NCBI GenBank assembly: GCA_021324415.1
Contig: JAJPJF010000396.1
Span: forward strand, 2,730 to 34,729
Direction: 5' to 3'
DNA from: Nostocales cyanobacterium Centralia_MAG_434
Lineage (GTDB): Bacteria; Cyanobacteriota; Cyanobacteriia; Cyanobacteriales; Nostocaceae
Length of the DNA: 32,000 nucleotides
In this document: piece by piece, positions 2,520-32,000 of the stretch
Layout of the letters: every line of letters begins with the position of its first letter
How positions within the stretch are numbered: position 1 is the first letter of the stretch
The notes under the pieces: generated by a model
Databases searched by the model: none
Seen by the model: the letters and a program-made list of their open reading frames with translations, nothing else
Told to the model about the DNA's origin: nothing
Made by a program: the position numbers and the translations under genes

Positions 2520-3497
2520 ATGCGTGCAATTCGATTTTCACAGGTAGGTTCTCTTTCTCAATTACACTTTGAAAATATCCCGACACCAGTTATCAAGACT
2601 AACGAAGTCCTAATAGAAATTCATGCCGCGGCGATTAATCCCAGCGATGTCAAAAATGTATTGGGTGCAATGCATCACACAACTCTACCCCGGATTCCCG
2701 GACGGGATTTTGCGGGTGTAATTGTTGAGGGTCCTAGCAATTTAATTGGAACAGAAGTTTGGGGAAGTGGTGGAGATTTGGGATTTACTCGTGATGGCAC
2801 ACATGCTGAGTATTTAATTTTACCTTTAGATGCTGTCAAAACCAAACCGAAGAATTTATCAATGAGCGAAGCTGCAGCAGTGGGAACTAGTTTTATTACT
2901 GCTTGGATGGGGCTAATAGATGCTGCTCAGTTGCGAGCAGGGGAAATTCTGCTGGTAATTGGTGCAACGGGTGCGGTAGGAAGTGCTGCAATTCAAATAG
3001 CTAAATGGAAAGAAGCTTTTGTAATTGCTACAGTTCGTCATGAATCTGATTATCAAATAGTGAAAAGTTTAGGTGTTGATGTTGTCATTGACTTGAAAAA
3101 GCAAACACTCCCAGATGCAGTTTTAACAGTAACAGATAATCAAGGTGTTGATGTGGCTTATGATACGGTGGGAGGGTCAATGTTTGAACCTTGTCTCAAG
3201 ACGTTAGCATTAAAAGGTCGTCAAATTGAAATTAGTTCGCCACTTGATAATCGTCAGGTTTGCTTCGATTTACTCGATTTTTATCGCCGAGAATTAAAAT
3301 TGCTAGGAGTCAATAGTTTATCTGCTGATGCTATCGCTTGTGGAAATATTCTTTCCCAACTAACTCCAGGTTTTGAATTAGCAAAGCTCCAGCCGCCTGT
3401 GATAGGTCAATCATACCCACTTCAAGATGCAGTTATTGCCTACGAACAGGTTTTAAATAGAAATGTTGCAGGTAAAGTCATTCTAAATTTGAAATAG
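2520..3497 (+). CDS. MDR-family zinc-type alcohol dehydrogenase-like / NADPH:quinone oxidoreductase
   Basis: 325-aa ORF. The N-terminal GroES-like fold reads EVLIEIHAAAINPSDV...PGRDFAGVIVE. The Rossmann motif is VIGATGAVGSAAIQIAK. An A-rich RBS region lies upstream. Confidence 0.85.
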   Translation: MRAIRFSQVGSLSQLHFENIPTPVIKTNEVLIEIHAAAINPSDVKNVLGAMHHTTLPRIPGRDFAGVIVEGPSNLIGTEVWGSGGDLGFTRDGTHAEYLILPLDAVKTKPKNLSMSEAAAVGTSFITAWMGLIDAAQLRAGEILLVIGATGAVGSAAIQIAKWKEAFVIATVRHESDYQIVKSLGVDVVIDLKKQTLPDAVLTVTDNQGVDVAYDTVGGSMFEPCLKTLALKGRQIEISSPLDNRQVCFDLLDFYRRELKLLGVNSLSADAIACGNILSQLTPGFELAKLQPPVIGQSYPLQDAVIAYEQVLNRNVAGKVILNLK

Positions 3498-6612: not shown

Positions 6613-7371
6613 CTAGCACCTAATCTCCTTCATCTTTCGGTTTGAACTTTTGGAAACTCGGTTGAAGATTTGTCCTGCTAATGCTGTAAATGCAGAATGA
6701 CCACGATGTCGAGGACGATCAAGGGTGATCTGTAAATTCATTGCTATTTGACCTTGTTCAATCAGTAAAACTCGATCTGCTAAAGTAACGGCTTCTTCTA
6801 CATCATGTGTAATTAACAATGCGGTAAATTGCTGTTGTTGCCAAATCTCTTCAATAAGATGCTGCATTTCAATTCGAGTCAATGCATCTAATGCACCTAA
6901 TGGCTCATCTAATAACAGTAGACGTGGTTCACTGACTAAAGCTCTCGCCAATGAAACCCTCTGACGTTGACCCCCCGATAGTACAGATGGCCAATCAAAA
7001 GCACGTTCAGATAGCCCAACTTGTTCTAATGCCCAATGTGCTTTCGGTCGCCAATTTTGTTTCAATCCTAATCCTACATTCTCTAAGACCCGCTTCCACA
7101 CTAACAGACGAGGATCTTGGAACATCACCCGTGTGTCTGGATTGAGCTTACGTAATGGCTTTCCATCGATCAAAATAGTGCCATTGTCAGGATATTCTAA
7201 TCCTGCAATTAGCCTTAATAAAGTACTTTTCCCAGAGCCACTACGTCCCACAATTGCGACAAATTCTCCTCTAGATATTTCTAAATCTAGATTCTGCAAG
7301 ACATGGATATTTCCAAAGCTTTTTCTCAGACCTATTATTTTCAGATCTACTCCCTTAGGTCCTAGTTTCAT
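6613..7371 (-). CDS. ssuB: aliphatic sulfonate ABC transporter ATP-binding protein
   Basis: 252-aa ORF with Walker [10 protein letters not shown], signature [15 protein letters not shown] and Walker B LLLLDEP. A GGAGG RBS sits 4 nt upstream. It is the last gene of the ssu cluster. Confidence 0.8.
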
Positions 7372-7455
7372 AAAACCTCCGATACGTTTGGAAACCCATA
7401 GCCTTCAGGTATGGGAGGAAAAACGAACGGGTACTTTAGTGCCCGTCTAGATATC

Positions 7456-8739
7456 TCAAAACACATAACTGTAACCGTCCTTTTTATAAATAGTGGTGCA
7501 GTATTTGTAAGATATGCCTTGCACCAATCCGTCTTTAGTTGAGATATTGAAACTGCCAGTGGCGCGGGTTGCAATTCGACCGACGTAAACACCAATTTTC
7601 TTTCCCTTGCCAACAGTGGCTTTGACAATATCACCAGTTTGAAAACCAAAGTGGAATTTTGTCCTAGCACAGTGACGATTAGGAAAGCCGTACTTATCGG
7701 TGCGGCATGATTGACGTGTTCCGTGTCCAGTTGCCTTAATGGGCAGTGGTTTGACGTGTTTGACAACAAGTGTAGGCGTGGATTTACCAACGCAAGCTGC
7801 ATCAATCCAATGCGTCTTGTCTAGACTTTGTTGGGTACGATTGAACTTGGTCAATCCGCCACTTCCCACCTCTACTTGTAACCCCGTTGCTTTCAGTATT
7901 TCCAGCAACTTGAACCGAGTAGCGTTAACTGCTGCTGTATCTGCCATTGGTTTTTTGGCTTGAGCCAATATCTTTTTGAGCAACTCAGGTTTACTTTTCA
8001 AAAATTGTTCAATAGGTTTATTCCCCTTTTTCAAATTGCACTTTTCACACGCTAAGCACAAATTGCTGATCCGGTTAGAACCACCAAGTGAACGTGGGTG
8101 TATATGCTCTATTTGCAGTGGCACATCTTTGATATTGCAATAGGCGCATTGACGGTTCCACTTTTCGAGTAAGTACTCTCGTGTTTCGTAACCAGCGAGC
8201 GTGCCTTGCTGATATTCGTTGCCACTGAACTGTGGGTTCTGCATTAATTGCGTGTCGAACTTCACCAACTCTTGGGAAATAGCGGCAATTGGTGCTAATT
8301 TGCACAATCGCTTAACCCAAGTCTCGATGTTATGGACACGACTCATTAGGCTTGGTGGCAACCATCCATTAGCCTTTGTGCGGTTGTCGAACCGTGCTGC
8401 ACGGTAACGAGTTTTGCGGTTGCGCCGACTACGACGCAATTGACGACGGGATGTCAATGATTCCCGAATAGCAAAACCTCGGTGTTGCAACTCGGCTGCC
8501 CATACTACTTCACCCGTTGCATCGTTGACCAATGCCAACCCCGTGGTTTTTGCACCTGGGTCAATCTTGACTCTTAACGGGTTAACAGGTGCGCTAGGTC
8601 GTGACTCTTTTAAAATCACTGTGAATGGAAACCGTCGGAATATCGCAGCTTTACCATTTCTCAGTAGTTGCCTTGCTTGTGCGGGATGGATTGGATCTAA
8701 CGGTCGTTTGTCTGTATCAATTACAAGTACTTTGGACAT
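7456..8739 (-). CDS. iscB: IscB RNA-guided nuclease (OMEGA system; RuvC with inserted HNH)
   Basis: 427-aa ORF. Motifs in order: PLMP-type N-terminus (RPLDPIHPAQARQLL), RuvC-I (KIDPGAKTTGLALV), Arg-rich bridge helix (RRQLRRSRRNRKTRYRAARF), RuvC-II (ISQELVKFD), HNH (CAYC..IEHIHPRSLGGSNRISNLCLACEKCNLKKGN), RuvC-III (THWIDAACVG) and a beta-rich C-terminal tail. A GAGGGG RBS lies upstream. Confidence 0.9.
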   Translation of the reverse strand: MSKVLVIDTDKRPLDPIHPAQARQLLRNGKAAIFRRFPFTVILKESRPSAPVNPLRVKIDPGAKTTGLALVNDATGEVVWAAELQHRGFAIRESLTSRRQLRRSRRNRKTRYRAARFDNRTKANGWLPPSLMSRVHNIETWVKRLCKLAPIAAISQELVKFDTQLMQNPQFSGNEYQQGTLAGYETREYLLEKWNRQCAYCNIKDVPLQIEHIHPRSLGGSNRISNLCLACEKCNLKKGNKPIEQFLKSKPELLKKILAQAKKPMADTAAVNATRFKLLEILKATGLQVEVGSGGLTKFNRTQQSLDKTHWIDAACVGKSTPTLVVKHVKPLPIKATGHGTRQSCRTDKYGFPNRHCARTKFHFGFQTGDIVKATVGKGKKIGVYVGRIATRATGSFNISTKDGLVQGISYKYCTTIYKKDGYSYVF

Positions 8740-8742
8740 TTC

Positions 8743-9062
8743 ATTTTCCCCTCAAAAATGGGCAGCCTTAATCCAAAACTGGCTAGTCTGAACACTAAAT
8801 GAATCAACCAAGAAGGCTGCCCATTTTTGTACGTGTTAGACCCAATCATATGTCCCTCCTTTCGGGTAATGTGAGCCTAGACAATGTTATTGAGCGGGAC
8901 ATCCAAACAGCACTAGCCTCAAACCCTCTAAGCTTGTTTAACCATTTGGTTGTAGAGCTACAGACTGGCATCACGTATCTGTAGGTACGAACTTAACCGC
9001 TTCTCAATAACGTAGTACCGAAGTACTTAGTCGGGTCAACTAGGGCTTACAACAACCGAGTC
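8743..9062 (-). ncRNA. candidate omega RNA scaffold of the IscB element (boundaries approximate)
   Basis: A 368-bp non-coding gap lies directly 5' of iscB on the same strand. It contains a 16-bp perfect stem (8754-8769 with 8813-8828) and a UUCG-tetraloop hairpin (9014-9027). It also has a 7-bp stem (8958-8964 with 8978-8984) and a long-range 9+3-bp helix (9003-9011 with 8886-8894). Confidence 0.6.
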
Positions 9063-9107
9063 GTTGCTGGAAGCCCACGGCTATAAGCCGTGGGTGTTGA
9101 CAAAGAA

Positions 9108-9911
9108 TTATCTCCTAAAAACTTCAGGTGAGATCCGTTGGTATGCAGGATGCCAAGAAAGCCATTTCCTTTCCAAAAATCCTGCTAATATATCAGCTAG
9201 CTTTCCCAAGGAGGCGTACAGCAAAATACTTAAAACTACGACATCAGTTTGCAGAAATTCACGGGCATTCATCGCCATGTAACCAATGCCAGAGTCAAAC
9301 GCAATAGTTTCACTAACAATAAGAGTTAACCACATAACTCCTAAAGCATAGCGTACACCAACTAGAATAGAAGGCAGAGCACTGGGAAGAATGATTTGCC
9401 AAAATAAAGACCAAGTGTTAAGTCCATAAACTTTTCCCATTTCAATTAGTTCTGGATCAACAGTTCGGATACCGTGAAAGGTGTTGATGTAAACAGGAAA
9501 TAATACACCTAAAGCAACTAAAAAAATTTTTCCCTCTTCCCCAACCCCAAACCACAAAATCACTAAGGGAATCATAGCCAAATGAGGAATATTACGCAAC
9601 ATTTGAATAGATGTGTCTAACAGGGTTTCAGCCAAAGGAATAATGCCATTAACTAACCCTAGAAGAAAGGCAATACTACCACCAATGAAAAAGCCAATCA
9701 CTGCCCGTTTAGTACTAATGCCAATGTGGTAGAATAATTCTCCAGACTTAGCAAGGCGAATTCCTGCAAGTACAACATCTACAGGTGTAGGTAATAATTT
9801 TGAGGAAATCCAGTCAAATTGAACGAGGAACTGCCAAATTATAACCAAGAGAATTGGAATAAACCAAGGAGCTAATCTATAAAAGCATTGATTAAAAGAT
9901 TTTGTCTTCAC
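9108..9911 (-). CDS. ssuC: aliphatic sulfonate ABC transporter permease
   Basis: 267-aa ORF that is polytopic and hydrophobic, with a BPD-type permease core (ETLLDTSIQMLRNIPHLAMIPLVILWFG). It sits next to ssuD and ssuA. Confidence 0.8.
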   Translation of the reverse strand: MKTKSFNQCFYRLAPWFIPILLVIIWQFLVQFDWISSKLLPTPVDVVLAGIRLAKSGELFYHIGISTKRAVIGFFIGGSIAFLLGLVNGIIPLAETLLDTSIQMLRNIPHLAMIPLVILWFGVGEEGKIFLVALGVLFPVYINTFHGIRTVDPELIEMGKVYGLNTWSLFWQIILPSALPSILVGVRYALGVMWLTLIVSETIAFDSGIGYMAMNAREFLQTDVVVLSILLYASLGKLADILAGFLERKWLSWHPAYQRISPEVFRR

Positions 9912-9950: not shown

Positions 9951-11078
9951 TTACTTAGGAAAGTTTTCAAAACCAATAAGTTCGCCAACAGGGCTAACCA
10001 TTTCAGTTTTATCTATGTTATTGATTTTCTGGATTGGCAAGCGAGGAAATAGTAATTCAGCAACTCGATAAGCTTCTTCTAAATGAGGATAACCGGAAAG
10101 AATAAATATATCAATTCCTAGAGCGGCATACTCTAGCATTCTGGCAACGACAGTATCAGGATCTCCTACCAAAGCTGTACCTGCACCACCTCGAACTAAC
10201 CCAACTCCTGCCCATAAATTTGGACTGATCTCCAGTACTTCTCGACTACCATTGTGTAGCTGTGTCATACGTTGTTGTCCTTGAGAGTCCATCCTGTCAA
10301 AAATTTTTCGGGCATTGGTGATCGCCTCATCGTCAACAAATTTAATCAATTGGTTAGCCGCCTCCCAAGCTTCAGTTGCAGTTTCTCGAACTATGATATG
10401 CAAGCGAATACCAAAACGGATAGTTCTACCTTGTTGTGCAGCTAATTCTTGGACAGACTTGATTTTTTCAGCTACATTTTGTGGTGTTTCTCCCCAAGTC
10501 AAATAAATATCGGCATGCTTGGCAGCAATCTGTTTTGCAATAGATGATGAACCACCAAACCATATAGGAAAGCGGGGAGATTGCACGGGAAGAAATAGTA
10601 GTCTACCTCCTTTGATGTGTAAATGATTACCACTAAAGTTAGTTTCATGACCAGATAAAATTTCTTTCCAAACGGTTAAAAACTCATCGGTTAATTCATA
10701 ACGTTGATCATGAGACAGATGCACTCCATCCCCTGCTAACTCCACGGGATCACCACCAGTGACAACGTGAGTTTGTAAACGTCCATTAGACAAACGATCA
10801 AACGTAGACGCCATTCTAGCAGCTACACCTGGAGACATCAATCCAGGACGAATCGCAACTAAAAAATACATTTTGCGTGTTATTGATATCAGGGATGAAG
10901 CCAAAATCCATGCATCTTCACAAGAACGTCCAGTGGGTAACAAAGCCCCGGAAAAACCTAAATTATCTACAGCAAGTGCAAGTTGTTGAAAATAACAAAA
11001 GTTGCATTCACGTCCACCAAATGATGTGGCTAAATATCGACCATCTCCATGTGTTGGAATAAACCAAAGTAATTCCAT
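9951..11078 (-). CDS. ssuD: FMNH2-dependent alkanesulfonate monooxygenase
   Basis: 375-aa ORF with long colinear similarity to E. coli SsuD as I recall it (WFIPTHGDGRYL; SCEDAW; ISPNLWAGVGLVRGGAGTALVGDPDTV; LSGYPHLEEAYRVAELLFP). Confidence 0.88.
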   Translation of the reverse strand: MELLWFIPTHGDGRYLATSFGGRECNFCYFQQLALAVDNLGFSGALLPTGRSCEDAWILASSLISITRKMYFLVAIRPGLMSPGVAARMASTFDRLSNGRLQTHVVTGGDPVELAGDGVHLSHDQRYELTDEFLTVWKEILSGHETNFSGNHLHIKGGRLLFLPVQSPRFPIWFGGSSSIAKQIAAKHADIYLTWGETPQNVAEKIKSVQELAAQQGRTIRFGIRLHIIVRETATEAWEAANQLIKFVDDEAITNARKIFDRMDSQGQQRMTQLHNGSREVLEISPNLWAGVGLVRGGAGTALVGDPDTVVARMLEYAALGIDIFILSGYPHLEEAYRVAELLFPRLPIQKINNIDKTEMVSPVGELIGFENFPK

Positions 11079-11158: not shown

Positions 11159-12196
11159 TTACGATTTAGGTTGCCAAACAGCATCTGCTACTTTTACGGG
11201 TTTAGGAAGCATCTTAAGACGTAAAAAAGTATCAGCAACTTTTTGTTGTTCTGCAATAATTTGAGGGCTGATTGATTGGACATCGTAACGTTTCCTCCTA
11301 CTCTCAGCAAGCTCTAATGAAGGAGCATCAATTCCTAGCTGAGATGATAAAATATCAACAACTTCATGATGATTTTTTTTTGCCCAATTTCCTACTTCAT
11401 TAGTTGTTTTGAGAATTTGCTTGATAATTTCTGGATTTGTATCAGCATAGTGTTTTGATGTCACAAAAAATTCTCTCCATGATGCTATACCCTTACCATC
11501 TCTTAAAATTCGTGCTCCTCCATGTCGTTGAGCTGCAGCTAGGAATGGGTCCCAAATTCCCCAAGCATCTATGTTGCCCTGTTGAAATGCCGCACGAGCA
11601 TCGGCTGGGGAAAGATAGACAGGTTGAATGTCGCTATATTGCATTCCCGCAGACGCCAACGCTTGCGTCACCATAAAATGAGCACTTGAACCTTTCGTCA
11701 CACCAACTTTTTTACCTTTGAGGTCAGCCATAGTCCGAATGGGAGAATCGTTGCGGACTAAAATAGCCAAACCTTCTGGACTTGCTGAAGAATTACCAAC
11801 ATATACCAATGGCACACCAGCGGACTGAGCAAATACTGGTGGAGCCTCTCCCACAGATGCAAAGTCAATGCTGTTTGCATTTAAAGCTTCTAACATAGGA
11901 GGACCCGATGGAAATTCTAACCATTTGACAGTCACTCCAGAAGAGGAAAGCTGTTTTTCTAAACTGCCTTGATGCTTAACCAGTGCTAAGACTGCAGATT
12001 TCTGATAGCCTATGTTTACTACTTTAGGCGCTTGAACATTTCTAGAAGTGCAACCAGCAAATCCTAAACTTAGACATAAGCCTAGAGTAAATAGCAGTGT
12101 AAAAACTTTAGCTGAGTTTTGTTTCAGTAAGCTGAAGGATTGCCGGAAACAGCTTGTTAGCAACAACAGAGGCTTAAAAAGAACGTGAAAGTTCAT
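11159..12196 (-). CDS. ssuA: sulfonate ABC transporter substrate-binding lipoprotein
   Basis: 345-aa ORF with a signal peptide and lipobox (LGFAGC). It has an NMT1/SsuA-type binding fold (IGYQKSAVLALVK; GKKVGVTKGSSAHF). It is the first gene of the cluster. Confidence 0.78.
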   Translation of the reverse strand: MNFHVLFKPLLLLTSCFRQSFSLLKQNSAKVFTLLFTLGLCLSLGFAGCTSRNVQAPKVVNIGYQKSAVLALVKHQGSLEKQLSSSGVTVKWLEFPSGPPMLEALNANSIDFASVGEAPPVFAQSAGVPLVYVGNSSASPEGLAILVRNDSPIRTMADLKGKKVGVTKGSSAHFMVTQALASAGMQYSDIQPVYLSPADARAAFQQGNIDAWGIWDPFLAAAQRHGGARILRDGKGIASWREFFVTSKHYADTNPEIIKQILKTTNEVGNWAKKNHHEVVDILSSQLGIDAPSLELAESRRKRYDVQSISPQIIAEQQKVADTFLRLKMLPKPVKVADAVWQPKS

Positions 12197-18955: not shown

Positions 18956-19525
18956 TCATTGGAGTTCTTGTAATCTTTGATTCGCTTCATCTATGTCGAA
19001 AATATTTGGGTTAAAGGTTTCACCTACCCATTCAATCCTCTCTTCATATTCTGGGTGCGATGGGTCAGTAATAATTTCAAGTAACTCTGCATAGCCCCAA
19101 GAACCTCCACAATCTTCAGGAGGACAAGCACGCTTCCCAGTAATGCATACAGGGTAGTTTGTATCTGGAGAATATGGTAGTTCTTTTTCGACTAAAATTT
19201 CGTGTTCCCAGCTATCTCCAAAATCGTAAGTGTAGAAGAATTTGGACTTTTCACTGTTAACCACCTGACGAAGAATGACACTTTTTTCCGAACGGACATT
19301 AAAGTCATATTCTGGTTGAGATTGACCGTAATCAATACCAGCAATGGTCCATGAATGCATATGATAATTATCCCAGCCCATTGCCGCTTGCACAATCAGA
19401 TGTAGCTGTTGAAGCGTTGTCGAACTTAATACCTGTATCCTTCTCCAAATAGGGGGTCGAATGTCCCTAAGGGTGATTTTCAGTTGGTAAACGGTTTGAT
19501 TGCTTGTGGATTTTTTCGTTGCCAT
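18956..19525 (-). CDS. plasmid pRiA4b ORF-3 family protein (PF07929-like)
   Basis: 189-aa ORF. The N-terminus shows the hallmark YQLKITLRDIRPPIWRRIQV...LHLIVQAAMGWDNYHMHSW, followed by YTYDFGDSWEHEI. Confidence 0.85.
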   Translation of the reverse strand: MATKKSTSNQTVYQLKITLRDIRPPIWRRIQVLSSTTLQQLHLIVQAAMGWDNYHMHSWTIAGIDYGQSQPEYDFNVRSEKSVILRQVVNSEKSKFFYTYDFGDSWEHEILVEKELPYSPDTNYPVCITGKRACPPEDCGGSWGYAELLEIITDPSHPEYEERIEWVGETFNPNIFDIDEANQRLQELQ

Positions 19526-21113: not shown

Positions 21114-21594
21114 AGTGGTTATCGCTACCTGCTAGATACGAATGCGATCATGGCCCTGCTGCAAGGAACTACCCAACTTATTCAATTACTACAAAATGCT
21201 GATTATGCACTTACCAGTAATAAAATGTCCAGCCTTTGAAAGTTGATCTGTAGGCGCAGTAGGTTATTCGTGGTAATAAGGCTGGACATTTTATTTTTTG
21301 GATCTCCCTTAGATAGCAGTTTCAGTCATTAGTCAAATTGAGTTTCTAGCTTTTTCTGGGCTAGGACAAAATGATCGCCAACTTTTTCAGCAGTTTATTC
21401 AGCGTGTTGAAGTGATCGATTTGGTAACAAATAACACAGTTTTGCTTGAGAAAATTATTGAATTTCGTCAACAATTTCGGTTAAAATTACCAGATGCAAT
21501 AATTGCGGCAATGGCAATCCAAAATTCTGCAAGTTTGGTAACTGCTGACCAAGAATTTGCAAAAGTAACGGCTCTCAAGGTAATCAATTGGTAG
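21114..21594 (+). pseudogene. vapC: PIN-domain VapC toxin gene interrupted by a MITE
   Basis: The N-terminal part reads RYLLDTNAIMALLQGTTQLIQLLQNADY, ending at 21206. The C-terminal part reads IAVSVISQIEFLAF...LVTADQEFAKV (21313-21594). Removing 106 nt (21207-21312) joins the two in frame. No clear start codon. Confidence 0.7.
21207..21312. mobile_element. 106-nt hairpin MITE, copy 1
   Basis: There is a 16-bp perfect stem, aataaaatgtccagcc (21219-21234) with ggctggacattttatt (21280-21295). The flanking arms are shared with copy 2 at 31846-31952. It sits inside vapC. Confidence 0.75.
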
Positions 21595-29428: not shown

Positions 29429-30577
29429 CTAGGGACTGGGCTCAGCATTTTCGTTCAATACTGCTTCAATTTCTGTGAGTTTTTGACGCAAAATTTCTTG
29501 AAGCTCCATGAGCTGAGTTTTGTCAGCTTTCTTCAACGTCTCTACGGACAGCTTTTGTAGACGCTTAGCCTCTGTTGCTAACGGCTTAGTTGTCGTACTA
29601 GAGGTTGATGATAACTGGGAGTGTTGTCCTACAATTTCATTGACTAATTTCCGGGTAGCATTAGCAGATAATTTTTCATTCATTACCTTCTGTGTCGTAT
29701 TTACCCTAATGGATTGTGCTTCTTCTTCAATGACTCCTAGATTTTTAGCTGAAAGTTTTTGGAGTGCGCTCGCATGAACGCCCTTTAATCCACTCCTGAT
29801 TGCTGTTTTTAGGTCTTGTGGTAGTGACAACATTGGAAAAATGTTAGCTTCAATCGAAGCAGGATTGAGCTGCAAATCTAGTAAGAATGCCAATACTACT
29901 TTTTCTGAATCACTTATCCCCAAATCGTCTAAACCTTGCTGTTGTGCTTGAGCGTTAGCTGTTATAAGTTCTACAACAGAATTCATCCGCTTGTGTGCGT
30001 TTAATCTTCGCACTACTGTAGAGAGAATGCGGGGAATATCTTGAGATTCTAGATCAGTATTGCTGACTATTTCTCGAACAATAGCCTCTGCTTTATCGAG
30101 GGGATTGAGGTCTTCACGGTGCAGAGAGGTTAGTAATGCTTTACGGTGTAAAGTTTCTGGTTCTTGAATAATGACAGCTTGGAGATTCTGCCAACCTAGA
30201 CTTTTGGCACTACGCCAACGCCGCTCGCCATCAAATATAACTAACTTTTCTCTCTGTACAAGAATAATTGGCTCCAGTTGTCCATCTCTTGACAAAGAAC
30301 GAGCCATGGATTCAATACTTTCTGGCAAAAATGTCTGCCTGGGTTGTTCTGGATTTGGCTCAATTTGTTCCATGGGAATGGACAAGATACCTGTTTGTGA
30401 TTGGATCTGCTCGCGTAGCGTGCTAAGATGCGCCTCCAAATCAGCTGAACCTTGAGAACGAAGTGCTTCAATTTCTGCCCTTAATCGCTGTATCTCTTTT
30501 TCAGCTTCAGATAGCTGCTGGGATTGCTTGGCTGGTGAAAAAAAATTGTTAATATCAGGGGTTTTTCGAGCGCACAT
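29429..30577 (-). CDS. parB: ParB/Spo0J-family partition protein
   Basis: 382-aa ORF with a ParB N-terminal domain (IEPNPEQPRQTF...GQLEPIILV...FDGERRWRSAKSLG). It lies 3 nt downstream of parA. Confidence 0.85.
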   Translation of the reverse strand: MCARKTPDINNFFSPAKQSQQLSEAEKEIQRLRAEIEALRSQGSADLEAHLSTLREQIQSQTGILSIPMEQIEPNPEQPRQTFLPESIESMARSLSRDGQLEPIILVQREKLVIFDGERRWRSAKSLGWQNLQAVIIQEPETLHRKALLTSLHREDLNPLDKAEAIVREIVSNTDLESQDIPRILSTVVRRLNAHKRMNSVVELITANAQAQQQGLDDLGISDSEKVVLAFLLDLQLNPASIEANIFPMLSLPQDLKTAIRSGLKGVHASALQKLSAKNLGVIEEEAQSIRVNTTQKVMNEKLSANATRKLVNEIVGQHSQLSSTSSTTTKPLATEAKRLQKLSVETLKKADKTQLMELQEILRQKLTEIEAVLNENAEPSP

Positions 30578-30580
30578 ATA

Positions 30581-31396
30581 TTATTTTTTCTTCTTGGTTT
30601 TATTAGCTGGCTTTCCAATTAAATTTATTAATTCAGAAGTAATTGCTTTAAAATCACCACGTGCAGGATGACTAGGGCGGTAGAGATGTATTGGCAATCC
30701 TTGACCACTGGCATTAACAAATTCGGCACTGTCTCGAATTTCGGGAAACGCACGAAGATTTATCTGCTTTAACTGTTCTGGTAATGCCGCCAATATCTGC
30801 CGATGAGTTCCCCGTTGAGAATTATATTGGTTGGGAACAAACCCCATAATTTCTGGAGATGGGTTTAAGCGTAAATGCTTGCAATGGTAGTAGTACCACT
30901 CTATTAAATGAGCAGCACCCTGAATAGATTTTGGTTCCAACTGCACGGGAATAATAACATGAGTGCAAGCAGCTAGAGCCATCAAAGGCAAAGGTCCAAG
31001 AGTTGCTGGGCAGTCAAAGATAATGAGCTCCTGTTTGAGTGGATAGTCAGTCAAGCAGTCTCCCAGAAGGTAGGCTCCGCGTTTATGGAGCACTAATTCA
31101 TCTGCCGTCTGGGTGAGGACCATTCCCCCTTGACAGAGGACTACCTTATCAGTGTGTTTGCTCCAGCAAGGAGTTAGGGGCCAAGAACCATCAAAATTAT
31201 CTTTGAGCACAGCAGCTAGTGTTTCTTCCGGCTCTGGCGGTTGCAATCCACAAAAAAGGGTCAACGACCCTTGTGGATCAAGATCAAAAAGCGCTACCTC
31301 GTACTTGTGAAGTGCCAATTCATATGCCAAGTGCACTGATAGTGTTGTTTTTCCACTTCCTCCAGCATTGCTAATTACAGCTAGTCGAACTTGCAT
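30581..31396 (-). CDS. parA: ParA-family partition ATPase
   Basis: 271-aa ORF with a deviant Walker A (VISNAGGSGKTTLSVHLA), the DLDPQGS motif and Walker B (IIFDCP). Confidence 0.88.
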   Translation of the reverse strand: MQVRLAVISNAGGSGKTTLSVHLAYELALHKYEVALFDLDPQGSLTLFCGLQPPEPEETLAAVLKDNFDGSWPLTPCWSKHTDKVVLCQGGMVLTQTADELVLHKRGAYLLGDCLTDYPLKQELIIFDCPATLGPLPLMALAACTHVIIPVQLEPKSIQGAAHLIEWYYYHCKHLRLNPSPEIMGFVPNQYNSQRGTHRQILAALPEQLKQINLRAFPEIRDSAEFVNASGQGLPIHLYRPSHPARGDFKAITSELINLIGKPANKTKKKK

Positions 31397-31667: not shown

Positions 31668-32000
31668 ACCTGTTGGATAAGGTGGAGGCGATCACCACTT
31701 AATATTACCAAATCGATTGGGTATTCTGTTGATGAAAGGATCACAGTCCTGGCAACGGCAATCAAACGCATTGAGCGCGATGGCAAGAGTAAGGAACTGA
31801 CAAAATTGGTTGCCCTGAGTGCCCAAGAGCAGCAGTTGGGCTTAGGCACTTACCAGTAATAAAATGTCCAGCCTTATTACAACGAATAACCTATTGTGCC
31901 GACAGATCAACCAACAAAGGCGCTTTCATTTTATTTTTTGGATCTCCCTTAGAAGAACTGGGGATAATTGGCAATGAACAAGATTTACTTTTGTTGCTTC
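31668..32000 (+). pseudogene. unknown gene remnant interrupted by MITE copy 2 (runs off the window)
   Basis: The plus-strand frame reads KSIGYSVDERITVLATAIKRIERDGKSKELTKLVALSAQEQQLGL and then meets the MITE. Removing 107 nt (31846-31952) continues it in frame as EELGIIGNEQDLLLLL. No start codon, and there is a probable frameshift near 31698. Confidence 0.3.
31846..31952. mobile_element. 107-nt hairpin MITE, copy 2 (internal loop inverted relative to copy 1)
   Basis: The outer arms gcacttaccagtaataaaatgtccagcc and cattttattttttggatctcccttag are shared in direct orientation with copy 1. The 45-nt interior (31874-31918) is about 84 percent identical to the reverse complement of the copy 1 interior. 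Confidence 0.75.

Follow-up and report, generated by a model that had tools for sequence, protein, structure and literature searches.

Results

The locus and its host operon

The stretch of DNA analysed here (the window) comprises 32,000 nucleotides of a contig from Nostocales cyanobacterium Centralia_MAG_434. Its minus strand carries a sulfonate operon of the ssu type, recognised from open reading frames and Pfam matches, with genes for a binding protein, a monooxygenase, a permease and an ATPase (Table 1). The gap between permease and ATPase is occupied by an iscB reading frame of 427 amino acids and by the 360-nt structured leader that precedes it. The frame was assigned to IscB, a nuclease whose RuvC domain is split by a bridge helix and HNH and which has an N-terminal PLMP region, on the basis of its Pfam matches (RRXRR and HNH). 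Its product matches solved IscB structures (PDB chains 9k30, 7xht and 7utn), TbaIscB at 6e-37 and OgeuIscB (7xht/7utn) at about 8e-25, and is 70-78% identical to the proteins of 80 related loci from Nostocales and other cyanobacteria, which a scan of reference genomes supplied for comparison. Elsewhere, the window holds parA- and parB-like genes and a gene resembling pRiA4b ORF-3 (29429-31396, 18956-19525), with many ORFs around them that have no Pfam match; this portion of the contig may be a plasmid or another mobile region.

Table 1. Positions of the operon genes, the IscB element and its parts in the window, with the further copies of the insert
Feature	Position	Strand	Basis or remark
Periplasmic binding protein	12196..11159	-	ssu-type operon
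Luciferase-like monooxygenase	11078..9951	-	ssu-type operon
ABC permease (ssuC)	9911..9108	-	ssu-type operon
Predicted guide, UAGGAGAUAAUUCUUU	9102..9117	-	16 nt; ssuC 3' end, stop codon 9110-9108
IscB (OMEGA, IS200/IS605-type) element, whole, non-autonomous	7372..9101	-	1730 bp; ssuC stop to ssuB start
Omega RNA core	8866..9101	-	Rfam HEARO RF02033 match and covariation
Domain of closing helix P1	9035..9101 (P1 = 9101-9095 with 9042-9035)	-	Rfam covariance alignment
Pseudoknot, 5' arm GACUA	9028..9032	-	Rfam annotation
UUCG-loop hairpin, AGUACUUCGGUACU	9014..9027	-	Rfam alignment and covariation
Long-range 9-bp helix	8886..9011 (9011-9003 with 8894-8886)	-	encloses central domain
Hairpin with 7-bp stem	8952..8988 (8984-8977 with 8965-8958; 8988-8987 with 8953-8952)	-	
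Long core hairpin, two stacked helices	8903..8949	-	Rfam alignment
Pseudoknot, 3' arm UUGUC	8880..8884	-	pairs with GACUA 9032-9028
GNRA-loop hairpin CC-GAAA-GG	8858..8865	-	beyond Rfam model
Native terminal hairpin, 5' arm GGACAU	8850..8855	-	overlaps ancestral ribosome binding site
Dispersed palindromic repeat (insert)	8740..8846	-	107 nt; 110 nt with duplicated ATG
Perfect stem, 43-nt loop, then U5	8753..8829 (8829-8813 with 8769-8753)	-	inside insert
SD-like GAGGGG from insert	8748..8753	-	8 nt before iscB AUG
Native terminal hairpin, 3' arm AUGUCC	8734..8739	-	iscB start codon and codon 2
iscB ORF, 427 aa, intact	7456..8739	-	Pfam RRXRR 3.3e-72, HNH 2.7e-11
iscB-distal end, hairpins 7446-7427 and 7415-7395	7372..7455	-	conserved in subfamily
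Predicted transposon-adjacent motif ATGAA	7367..7371	-	ssuB start codon and 2 nt; TTCAT on plus strand
ABC ATPase (ssuB)	7371..6613	-	ssu-type operon
Further insert copies (L087-L092)	metagenome contigs Ga0209902, Ga0070738, Ga0209062, JAESFN01		pattern scan

The leader and the HEARO family

When the whole window was scanned against Rfam, HEARO (RF02033) was the sole match above threshold. On the minus strand it covers 9101..8866 with a score of 121.7 bits (E 6e-25; the gathering score is 83 bits), runs over positions 1-211 of the 211 in the model and is not truncated. HEARO is the omega RNA of IscB (PMC9755519; bioRxiv 10.1101/2023.03.14.532601), and the match sits immediately 5' of the iscB ORF on the same strand. 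An earlier note, drawn up from the letters of this DNA alone, had taken the leader for an IscB omega RNA and proposed a covariance-model search as a check; this full-length match, the adjoining IscB frame and covariation in 60 homologs bear out its view of what kind of RNA this is. Two of the parts it assigned to that RNA do not belong, a terminal stem that is a foreign repeat and a UGUCCC/GGGACA pairing that is not conserved. It also began the structured unit at 9062, whereas the HEARO match, and with it the scaffold, begins at 9101, where homology among the related loci also starts; without the 39 nt that were missed, the closing helix lacks its 5' arm and the first hairpin is left out. The complementary segments that the note quoted are all present where it placed them, and the 381-nt leader folds far more strongly than its shuffled counterparts (-130.5 kcal/mol against -103.6 +/- 4.6; z = -5.84, with 0 of 100 shuffles as good).

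Covariation in the omega RNA core

The alignment holds 60 distinct leaders, and 72 base pairs were scored in a mapped structure that consists of the Rfam helices and two hairpins of the tail. Standard pairs fill 84.5% of cells in these homologs against 68.8% in shuffles, and the covariation score of 0.439 (0.163 when shuffled) was reached by none of 500 shuffles; when partners were slid by 1-3 columns as a control, the score fell to 0.04-0.10. Changes on both sides are seen in 48 of the 72 pairs; in the homologs the consensus helices and the pseudoknot are kept up by compensatory change, for which the earlier note had suggested a test. Across the homologs G.U cells outnumber A.C cells by 331 to 153, and the structure therefore belongs to the iscB-sense strand.

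Closing helix P1 encloses two hairpins, 9094-9074 and 9076-9043. In this 5' domain, helices 1-3 show 77-98% pairing and two-sided changes, and pairing at the base of the second hairpin (helix 5) reaches no more than 54% in the homologs. The pseudoknot (helix 6) covaries, with AU27/UA17/CG9 at one position and CG42/UA9 at another, and the window's own version contains one U.U mismatch. A UUCG hairpin had been read at 9027-9014; it is there, 85-93% paired in helices 7-8, and one of its pairs varies as AU26/CG15/GC8. The long-range helix, with arms GUUAUUGAG and CUCAAUAAC, is 91% paired (helix 9) with both-side changes in 6 of 7 pairs; its nine base pairs stand as first described, and the 'three further' pairs credited to it do not, being non-contiguous, with one of the next four positions paired. 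Likewise the 7-bp stem CUACAGA/UCUGUAG (8984-8978 with 8964-8958) was correctly seen and covaries in the 60 homologs, its hairpin (helices 11-13) being 92-100% paired, with two-sided changes in 9 of 10 pairs, while the long core hairpin (helices 14-15) is 88-89% paired and has 11 pairs with both-side changes. The proposed pairing of UGUCCC (8901-8896) with GGGACA (8856-8851) can be drawn in the window but is 39% paired in the 60 homologs, with covariation below the shuffled mean. We rejected this helix for want of comparative support; GGGAC pairs instead with AUGUCC in the iscB start region, in a hairpin that covaries.

Many relatives carry hairpin inserts of their own within the omega RNA, 25-93 nt long and mostly GC-rich (L014, L017, L020, L034, L043, L047 and L053, and of the same kind L054, L065, L066, L069, L074 and L075). 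They fall at a few recurring positions, equivalent to about 8900, 8925, 8879 and 8960 in the window, and TTCGCG(A/C)AGCGTG is among the motifs that they have in common. None is at the site of the window's insert. This pattern suggests that loops of the omega RNA which tolerate insertion are invaded time and again by short nested repeats.

Hairpins beyond the Rfam model

The conserved RNA extends some 20-30 nt past the end of RF02033, a model that others have noted to be without downstream elements (bioRxiv 10.1101/2023.03.14.532601). In the relatives this tail reads ...CAUUACC-C-GNRA-G-GAGGGAC-N2-5-AUGUCC. Its first hairpin (helix 16) is 99% paired, shows paired indels (CCA-GNRA-UGG, CCAA-GNRA-UUGG) and has GAAA, GCAA or GUAA as its loop, and its 3' arm is formed by the first two G of the ancestral Shine-Dalgarno (SD) sequence GGAGG (8859-8855). 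The second (helix 17) has the covariants GGAC/GUCC, GCUC/GAGC and GCAC/GUGC, with GC replaced by CG in 8 sequences and AU by UA in 5. When 8870-8725 of the window is folded, the structure of lowest energy still joins GGGACAU to AUGUCC around the insert described below. In IsrB, the PLMP domain touches the terminal hairpin of the omega RNA, in which the Shine-Dalgarno sequence lies (PMC9581776), and to judge by its position the tail is likely to be the IscB counterpart of that hairpin.

A dispersed repeat in the terminal hairpin

In 74 of 74 related leaders the iscB AUG lies within a few nucleotides of the SD and there is no insert. The window retains the ancestral GGAGGGACAU AUG at 8859-8847, yet its iscB AUG is at 8739, and the intervening DNA is flanked by ATG at 8849-8847 and again at 8739-8737, an apparent duplication that at 3 nt is too short for certainty. 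Inside lies the perfect stem that had been described as the 16-bp end of the omega RNA. As described, it stops 14 nt short of the AUG (8739), right against GAGGGG (8753-8748), but it is 17 bp long, since C8829 and G8753 also pair, and its assignment to the omega RNA fails: no related leader of the 74 has it, and copies of it turn up in unrelated contexts.

The locus recurs in identical form, with its insert, in two other metagenome assemblies, and a pattern scan recovered six further copies of the insert from metagenome contigs, in unrelated and mostly intergenic surroundings with different flanks. The copies have conserved ends (GTCTAACACG...AGGGGA(C/A)AA) and variable loops, their 17-bp stem is bordered by an A-run and a T-run, and several finish in an SD-like motif and a start, AGGGGACAA(A/G)TG, as in the iscB leader. 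None was found in the 80 related loci or in the plasmid collection. The absence from relatives and the copies elsewhere show the stem to be part of a dispersed repeat that has come to occupy the loop of the native terminal hairpin; by its sequence the insert is a small palindromic repeat, foreign to the omega RNA family.

A 13-nt match to the insert in one related locus (L065) falls within a coding region and was set aside as chance. In one metagenome contig (L090) a second hairpin repeat adjoins the repeat copy. The window itself contains two copies of another small hairpin repeat, at 21205-21310 and 31845-31945, with arms TAAAATGTCCAGCCTT/AAGGCTGGACATTTTA, common flanks GCACTTACCAGTAAT... 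and ...TTTTTTGGATCTCCCTTAGA, and an internal 40 nt that is inverted between the copies. Their arms equal that of the leader insert at 13 of 16 positions, with compensating GGG/CCC vs TCC/GGA; we considered a closer kinship and rejected it, as only the stem core and the architecture are common, which amounts to a loose family resemblance.

The insert places its own GAGGGG in front of the displaced start codon, where it could act as a substitute SD for iscB. By splitting the ancestral SD and AUG from iscB it leaves them at the head of a 42-codon ORF (8849..8721, minus strand) that is now out of frame, crosses the insert's hairpin and ends 16 nt into iscB; coupling to, or interference with, the translation of iscB is therefore possible. 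A second out-of-frame AUG is present at 8744-8742 on the minus strand. The insert could impair the terminal hairpin or the translation of iscB, leaving this copy partly disabled, and the stem with its U5 could be a 3' end signal; a scan for intrinsic terminators did not call the inserted hairpin, the loop of which is too long.

Element ends, predicted guide and adjacent motif

Homology among 75 loci begins at GTCAAC (9101), upstream of which the 5' flanks are unrelated between loci, and on the iscB-distal side it stops after GGAGGTTTT. SsuC has its nearest homologs (87% and 85% identical) on two contigs, L083 and L084, in which ssuB follows ssuC directly. Their uninterrupted junctions read ...AGGAGATGA TTCCT ATGAAACC and ...AGAAGATAA TTCCT ATGAAACC, and joining the window's flanks (9102.. 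to ..7371) reproduces this empty junction as ...AGGAGATAA TTCTTT before the join and ATGAAACT after it. The element therefore extends from 9101 to 7372, without target duplication, and lies just 5' of ATGAA. The start of homology and the empty sites agree that the 5' end of the scaffold coincides with the transposon boundary and that the flank beyond it is variable. In L083, the nearest relative without the element, ssuC and ssuB are annotated with overlapping stop and start codons, ATGA (3301-3304), while the ATGAAAC equivalent to the insertion site in the window lies 5 nt after the ssuC stop; the annotated start of ssuB thus differs among relatives (270 vs 252 aa).

Hairpins are found near both ends of the element (9094-9074, 7446-7427 and 7415-7395). 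Neither the element nor the set of window ORFs of at least 120 aa includes a tnpA (Y1 HUH transposase), and the element is therefore non-autonomous. The same is true of most IscB elements (bioRxiv 10.1101/2023.03.14.532601), so the missing TnpA does not exclude membership of the IS200/IS605 type. A scan of 7300-9300 on the minus strand returned no sigma70-like promoter. Transcription of such elements must start outside them (bioRxiv 10.1101/2023.03.14.532601), and a leader without a promoter, behind a co-oriented gene, fits transcription that enters from outside the element.

By the published rule, the guide lies outside the transposon boundary, in the flank 5' of the scaffold (bioRxiv 10.1101/2023.03.14.532601), which puts the predicted guide at 9117..9102. 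Its length of 16 nt is assumed from characterised IscBs, as are the ends of the RNA and its processing. On the other side the predicted adjacent motif corresponds to TTCAT, the TAM of GstIscB (bioRxiv 10.1101/2023.03.14.532601).

Elements in front of host start codons

The iscB-distal end of the element terminates in an SD-like GGAGG (7380-7376 in the window). Among the related loci (L002-L080) such an end is followed by (A/G)TGA in the flank in 53 of 66 cases, as against 3 of 66 control segments, with ATGA in 46 loci and GTGA in 7. In 34 of the 53, the ATG or GTG is the first codon of an ORF of 80 codons or more, compared with 16% of the other (A/G)TGA sites that these flanks contain. Elements of this clade therefore tend to adjoin host starts and to bring a replacement ribosome binding site with them, and from these sequence patterns they appear to donate it to the downstream host gene, in this case ssuB. 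Weinberg et al. (2009) reportedly remarked, in the original description of HEARO, on ATGA and GTGA next to these elements.

Discussion

We are highly confident that the leader is the scaffold of an IscB omega RNA of the Rfam family HEARO, reaching from 9101 to 8866 on the minus strand with a short conserved tail to about 8847, that it lies in a 1730-bp non-autonomous element of the IS200/IS605 type, and that a dispersed palindromic repeat of 107-110 nt has come to lie inside the loop of its last hairpin.

In proposing how such an element might work, we envisage that readthrough transcription from the ssu operon would yield an RNA carrying both guide and scaffold, the guide being formed by 16 nucleotides of host sequence just ahead of the scaffold (9117..9102, UAGGAGAUAAUUCUUU). 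The complex of IscB with this RNA would cut the element-free junction, where the guide match TAGGAGATAATTCTTT is followed by ATGAA, and cutting of the empty junction would favour retention or homing of the element. The scaffold of the relatives ends in two small hairpins holding the SD and start codon of iscB; in the window, the dispersed repeat has landed in the loop of the last of these, contributing the 17-bp stem, parting the SD from its AUG and providing the SD-like GAGGGG as a putative substitute. A broader proposal, which we offer tentatively and think rather less probable than its converse, is that the clade is adapted to land between a host ribosome binding site and an (A/G)TGA start, in the orientation of the host gene. 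Transcription of the operon would then produce the guide and omega RNA, and the far end of the element would give a replacement SD so that the host gene (ssuB) stays translated. The mobile hairpin repeat would have done likewise to iscB, splitting SD from AUG and bringing GAGGGG, and possibly also a terminator-like stem at which the omega RNA would have its 3' end.

The leader might alternatively be chiefly a cis-regulatory 5' UTR for the translation of iscB, with the hairpin of the insert and its U5 as a terminator that uncouples the omega RNA from iscB. The SD and start codon do lie within covarying hairpins, the SD hairpin of IsrB makes contact with the PLMP domain, and the 17-bp stem is followed by UUUUU, with A-runs and T-runs on both sides in the related repeats. 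However, a regulatory role of this kind would complement the guide-RNA role, not replace it, and a loop of 43 nt is atypical for an intrinsic terminator and was passed over by the scan; as the principal function we consider it unlikely, though worth keeping in mind.

It is very improbable, in our judgement, that the whole leader is a single native omega RNA scaffold, its terminal stem a lineage-specific extension. The perfection of the stem, its place between the conserved tail and the AUG, a minimum-energy fold that keeps GGGACAU/AUGUCC around it, and the tolerance of other relatives for small inserts in the loops of their omega RNAs would all accord with such an extension. Against it, the stem is missing from every one of the 74 related leaders, a hairpin with the same conserved ends recurs in six unrelated contexts, and the ATG duplication of 3 nt borders the insert that carries it.

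Nor do we see more than the slightest likelihood that these structures are mainly signals of single-stranded DNA, that is, subterminal hairpins recognised by TnpA at the transposon ends, and not RNA. Such DNA hairpins are used by IS200/IS605 ends, and here the first hairpin (9094-9074) is at the terminus of the element and another (7446-7427) at the opposite end. Yet the covarying helices and the pseudoknot span 235 nt, well past the terminal hairpin, G.U exceeds A.C by 2.2 to 1, and experiments have established the family as a guide RNA; in the first hairpin the two roles are compatible. That the region instead encodes small proteins can be all but dismissed: one metagenome annotation (L082) calls a 61-aa ORF, but neither plus-strand frame (8799..8984, 9064..9282) has a Pfam match, the frames overlap covarying RNA helices and the ssuC gene, and the variation consists of paired compensatory changes of the RNA type, so that the earlier note had reasonable grounds to discount them.

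The reading as an IscB omega RNA in a mobile element has close analogues among known systems. With HEARO RF02033 the leader has in common a full-length match, a co-oriented position 5' of iscB, identical helices and pseudoknot that covary, and a 5' end set at the transposon boundary, beyond which the variable flank is the presumed guide; it differs in running about 20-30 nt further, through the GNRA and SD/start hairpins, and in its foreign insert of 107 nt. ISGst5, which encodes GstIscB in Geobacillus stearothermophilus, is likewise non-autonomous and of the IS200/IS605 type, takes its guide from the flank (bioRxiv 10.1101/2023.03.14.532601) and is co-oriented with the upstream host gene, and the ATGAA predicted here is equivalent to TTCAT. 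In contrast to ISGst5, the present element has a cyanobacterial host, a distant protein and a GGAGG at its iscB-distal end before the host ATG, and its activity is a prediction. The hairpins SL7 and SL8 of DtIsrB (PMC9581776) are arranged in tandem at the 3' end of the RNA immediately upstream of the nuclease ORF, the last with the Shine-Dalgarno sequence, and CC-GNRA-GG and GGAC/GUCC would be their counterparts here; IscB has an HNH domain, unlike IsrB, and the correspondence of the hairpins is drawn from position only. Finally, the insert resembles the small dispersed palindromic or MITE-like repeats of filamentous cyanobacteria in being short, palindromic, multi-copy and intergenic with conserved ends, and has looser relatives within the window (21205-21310 and 31845-31945); it differs from them in having no match to a named family and no known link to a transposase.

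The locus is an ordinary and recognisable member of a well-studied family that has suffered a secondary insertion, and since the RNA family, its nuclease partner and their mechanism are already well described it adds little to them. It does confirm that an omega RNA can be recognised by a reader with nothing but the sequence, and it is a clean natural example in which both ends of the element, the predicted guide and the adjacent motif are resolved against empty sites. The comparative evidence further indicates that, in this clade, the last hairpins of the IscB omega RNA hold the SD and the start codon and lie outside the Rfam model. The loop of the terminal hairpin has accepted a foreign hairpin of 107 nt while the nuclease gene is still intact, a tolerance of insertion that may interest those who engineer omega RNA scaffolds.
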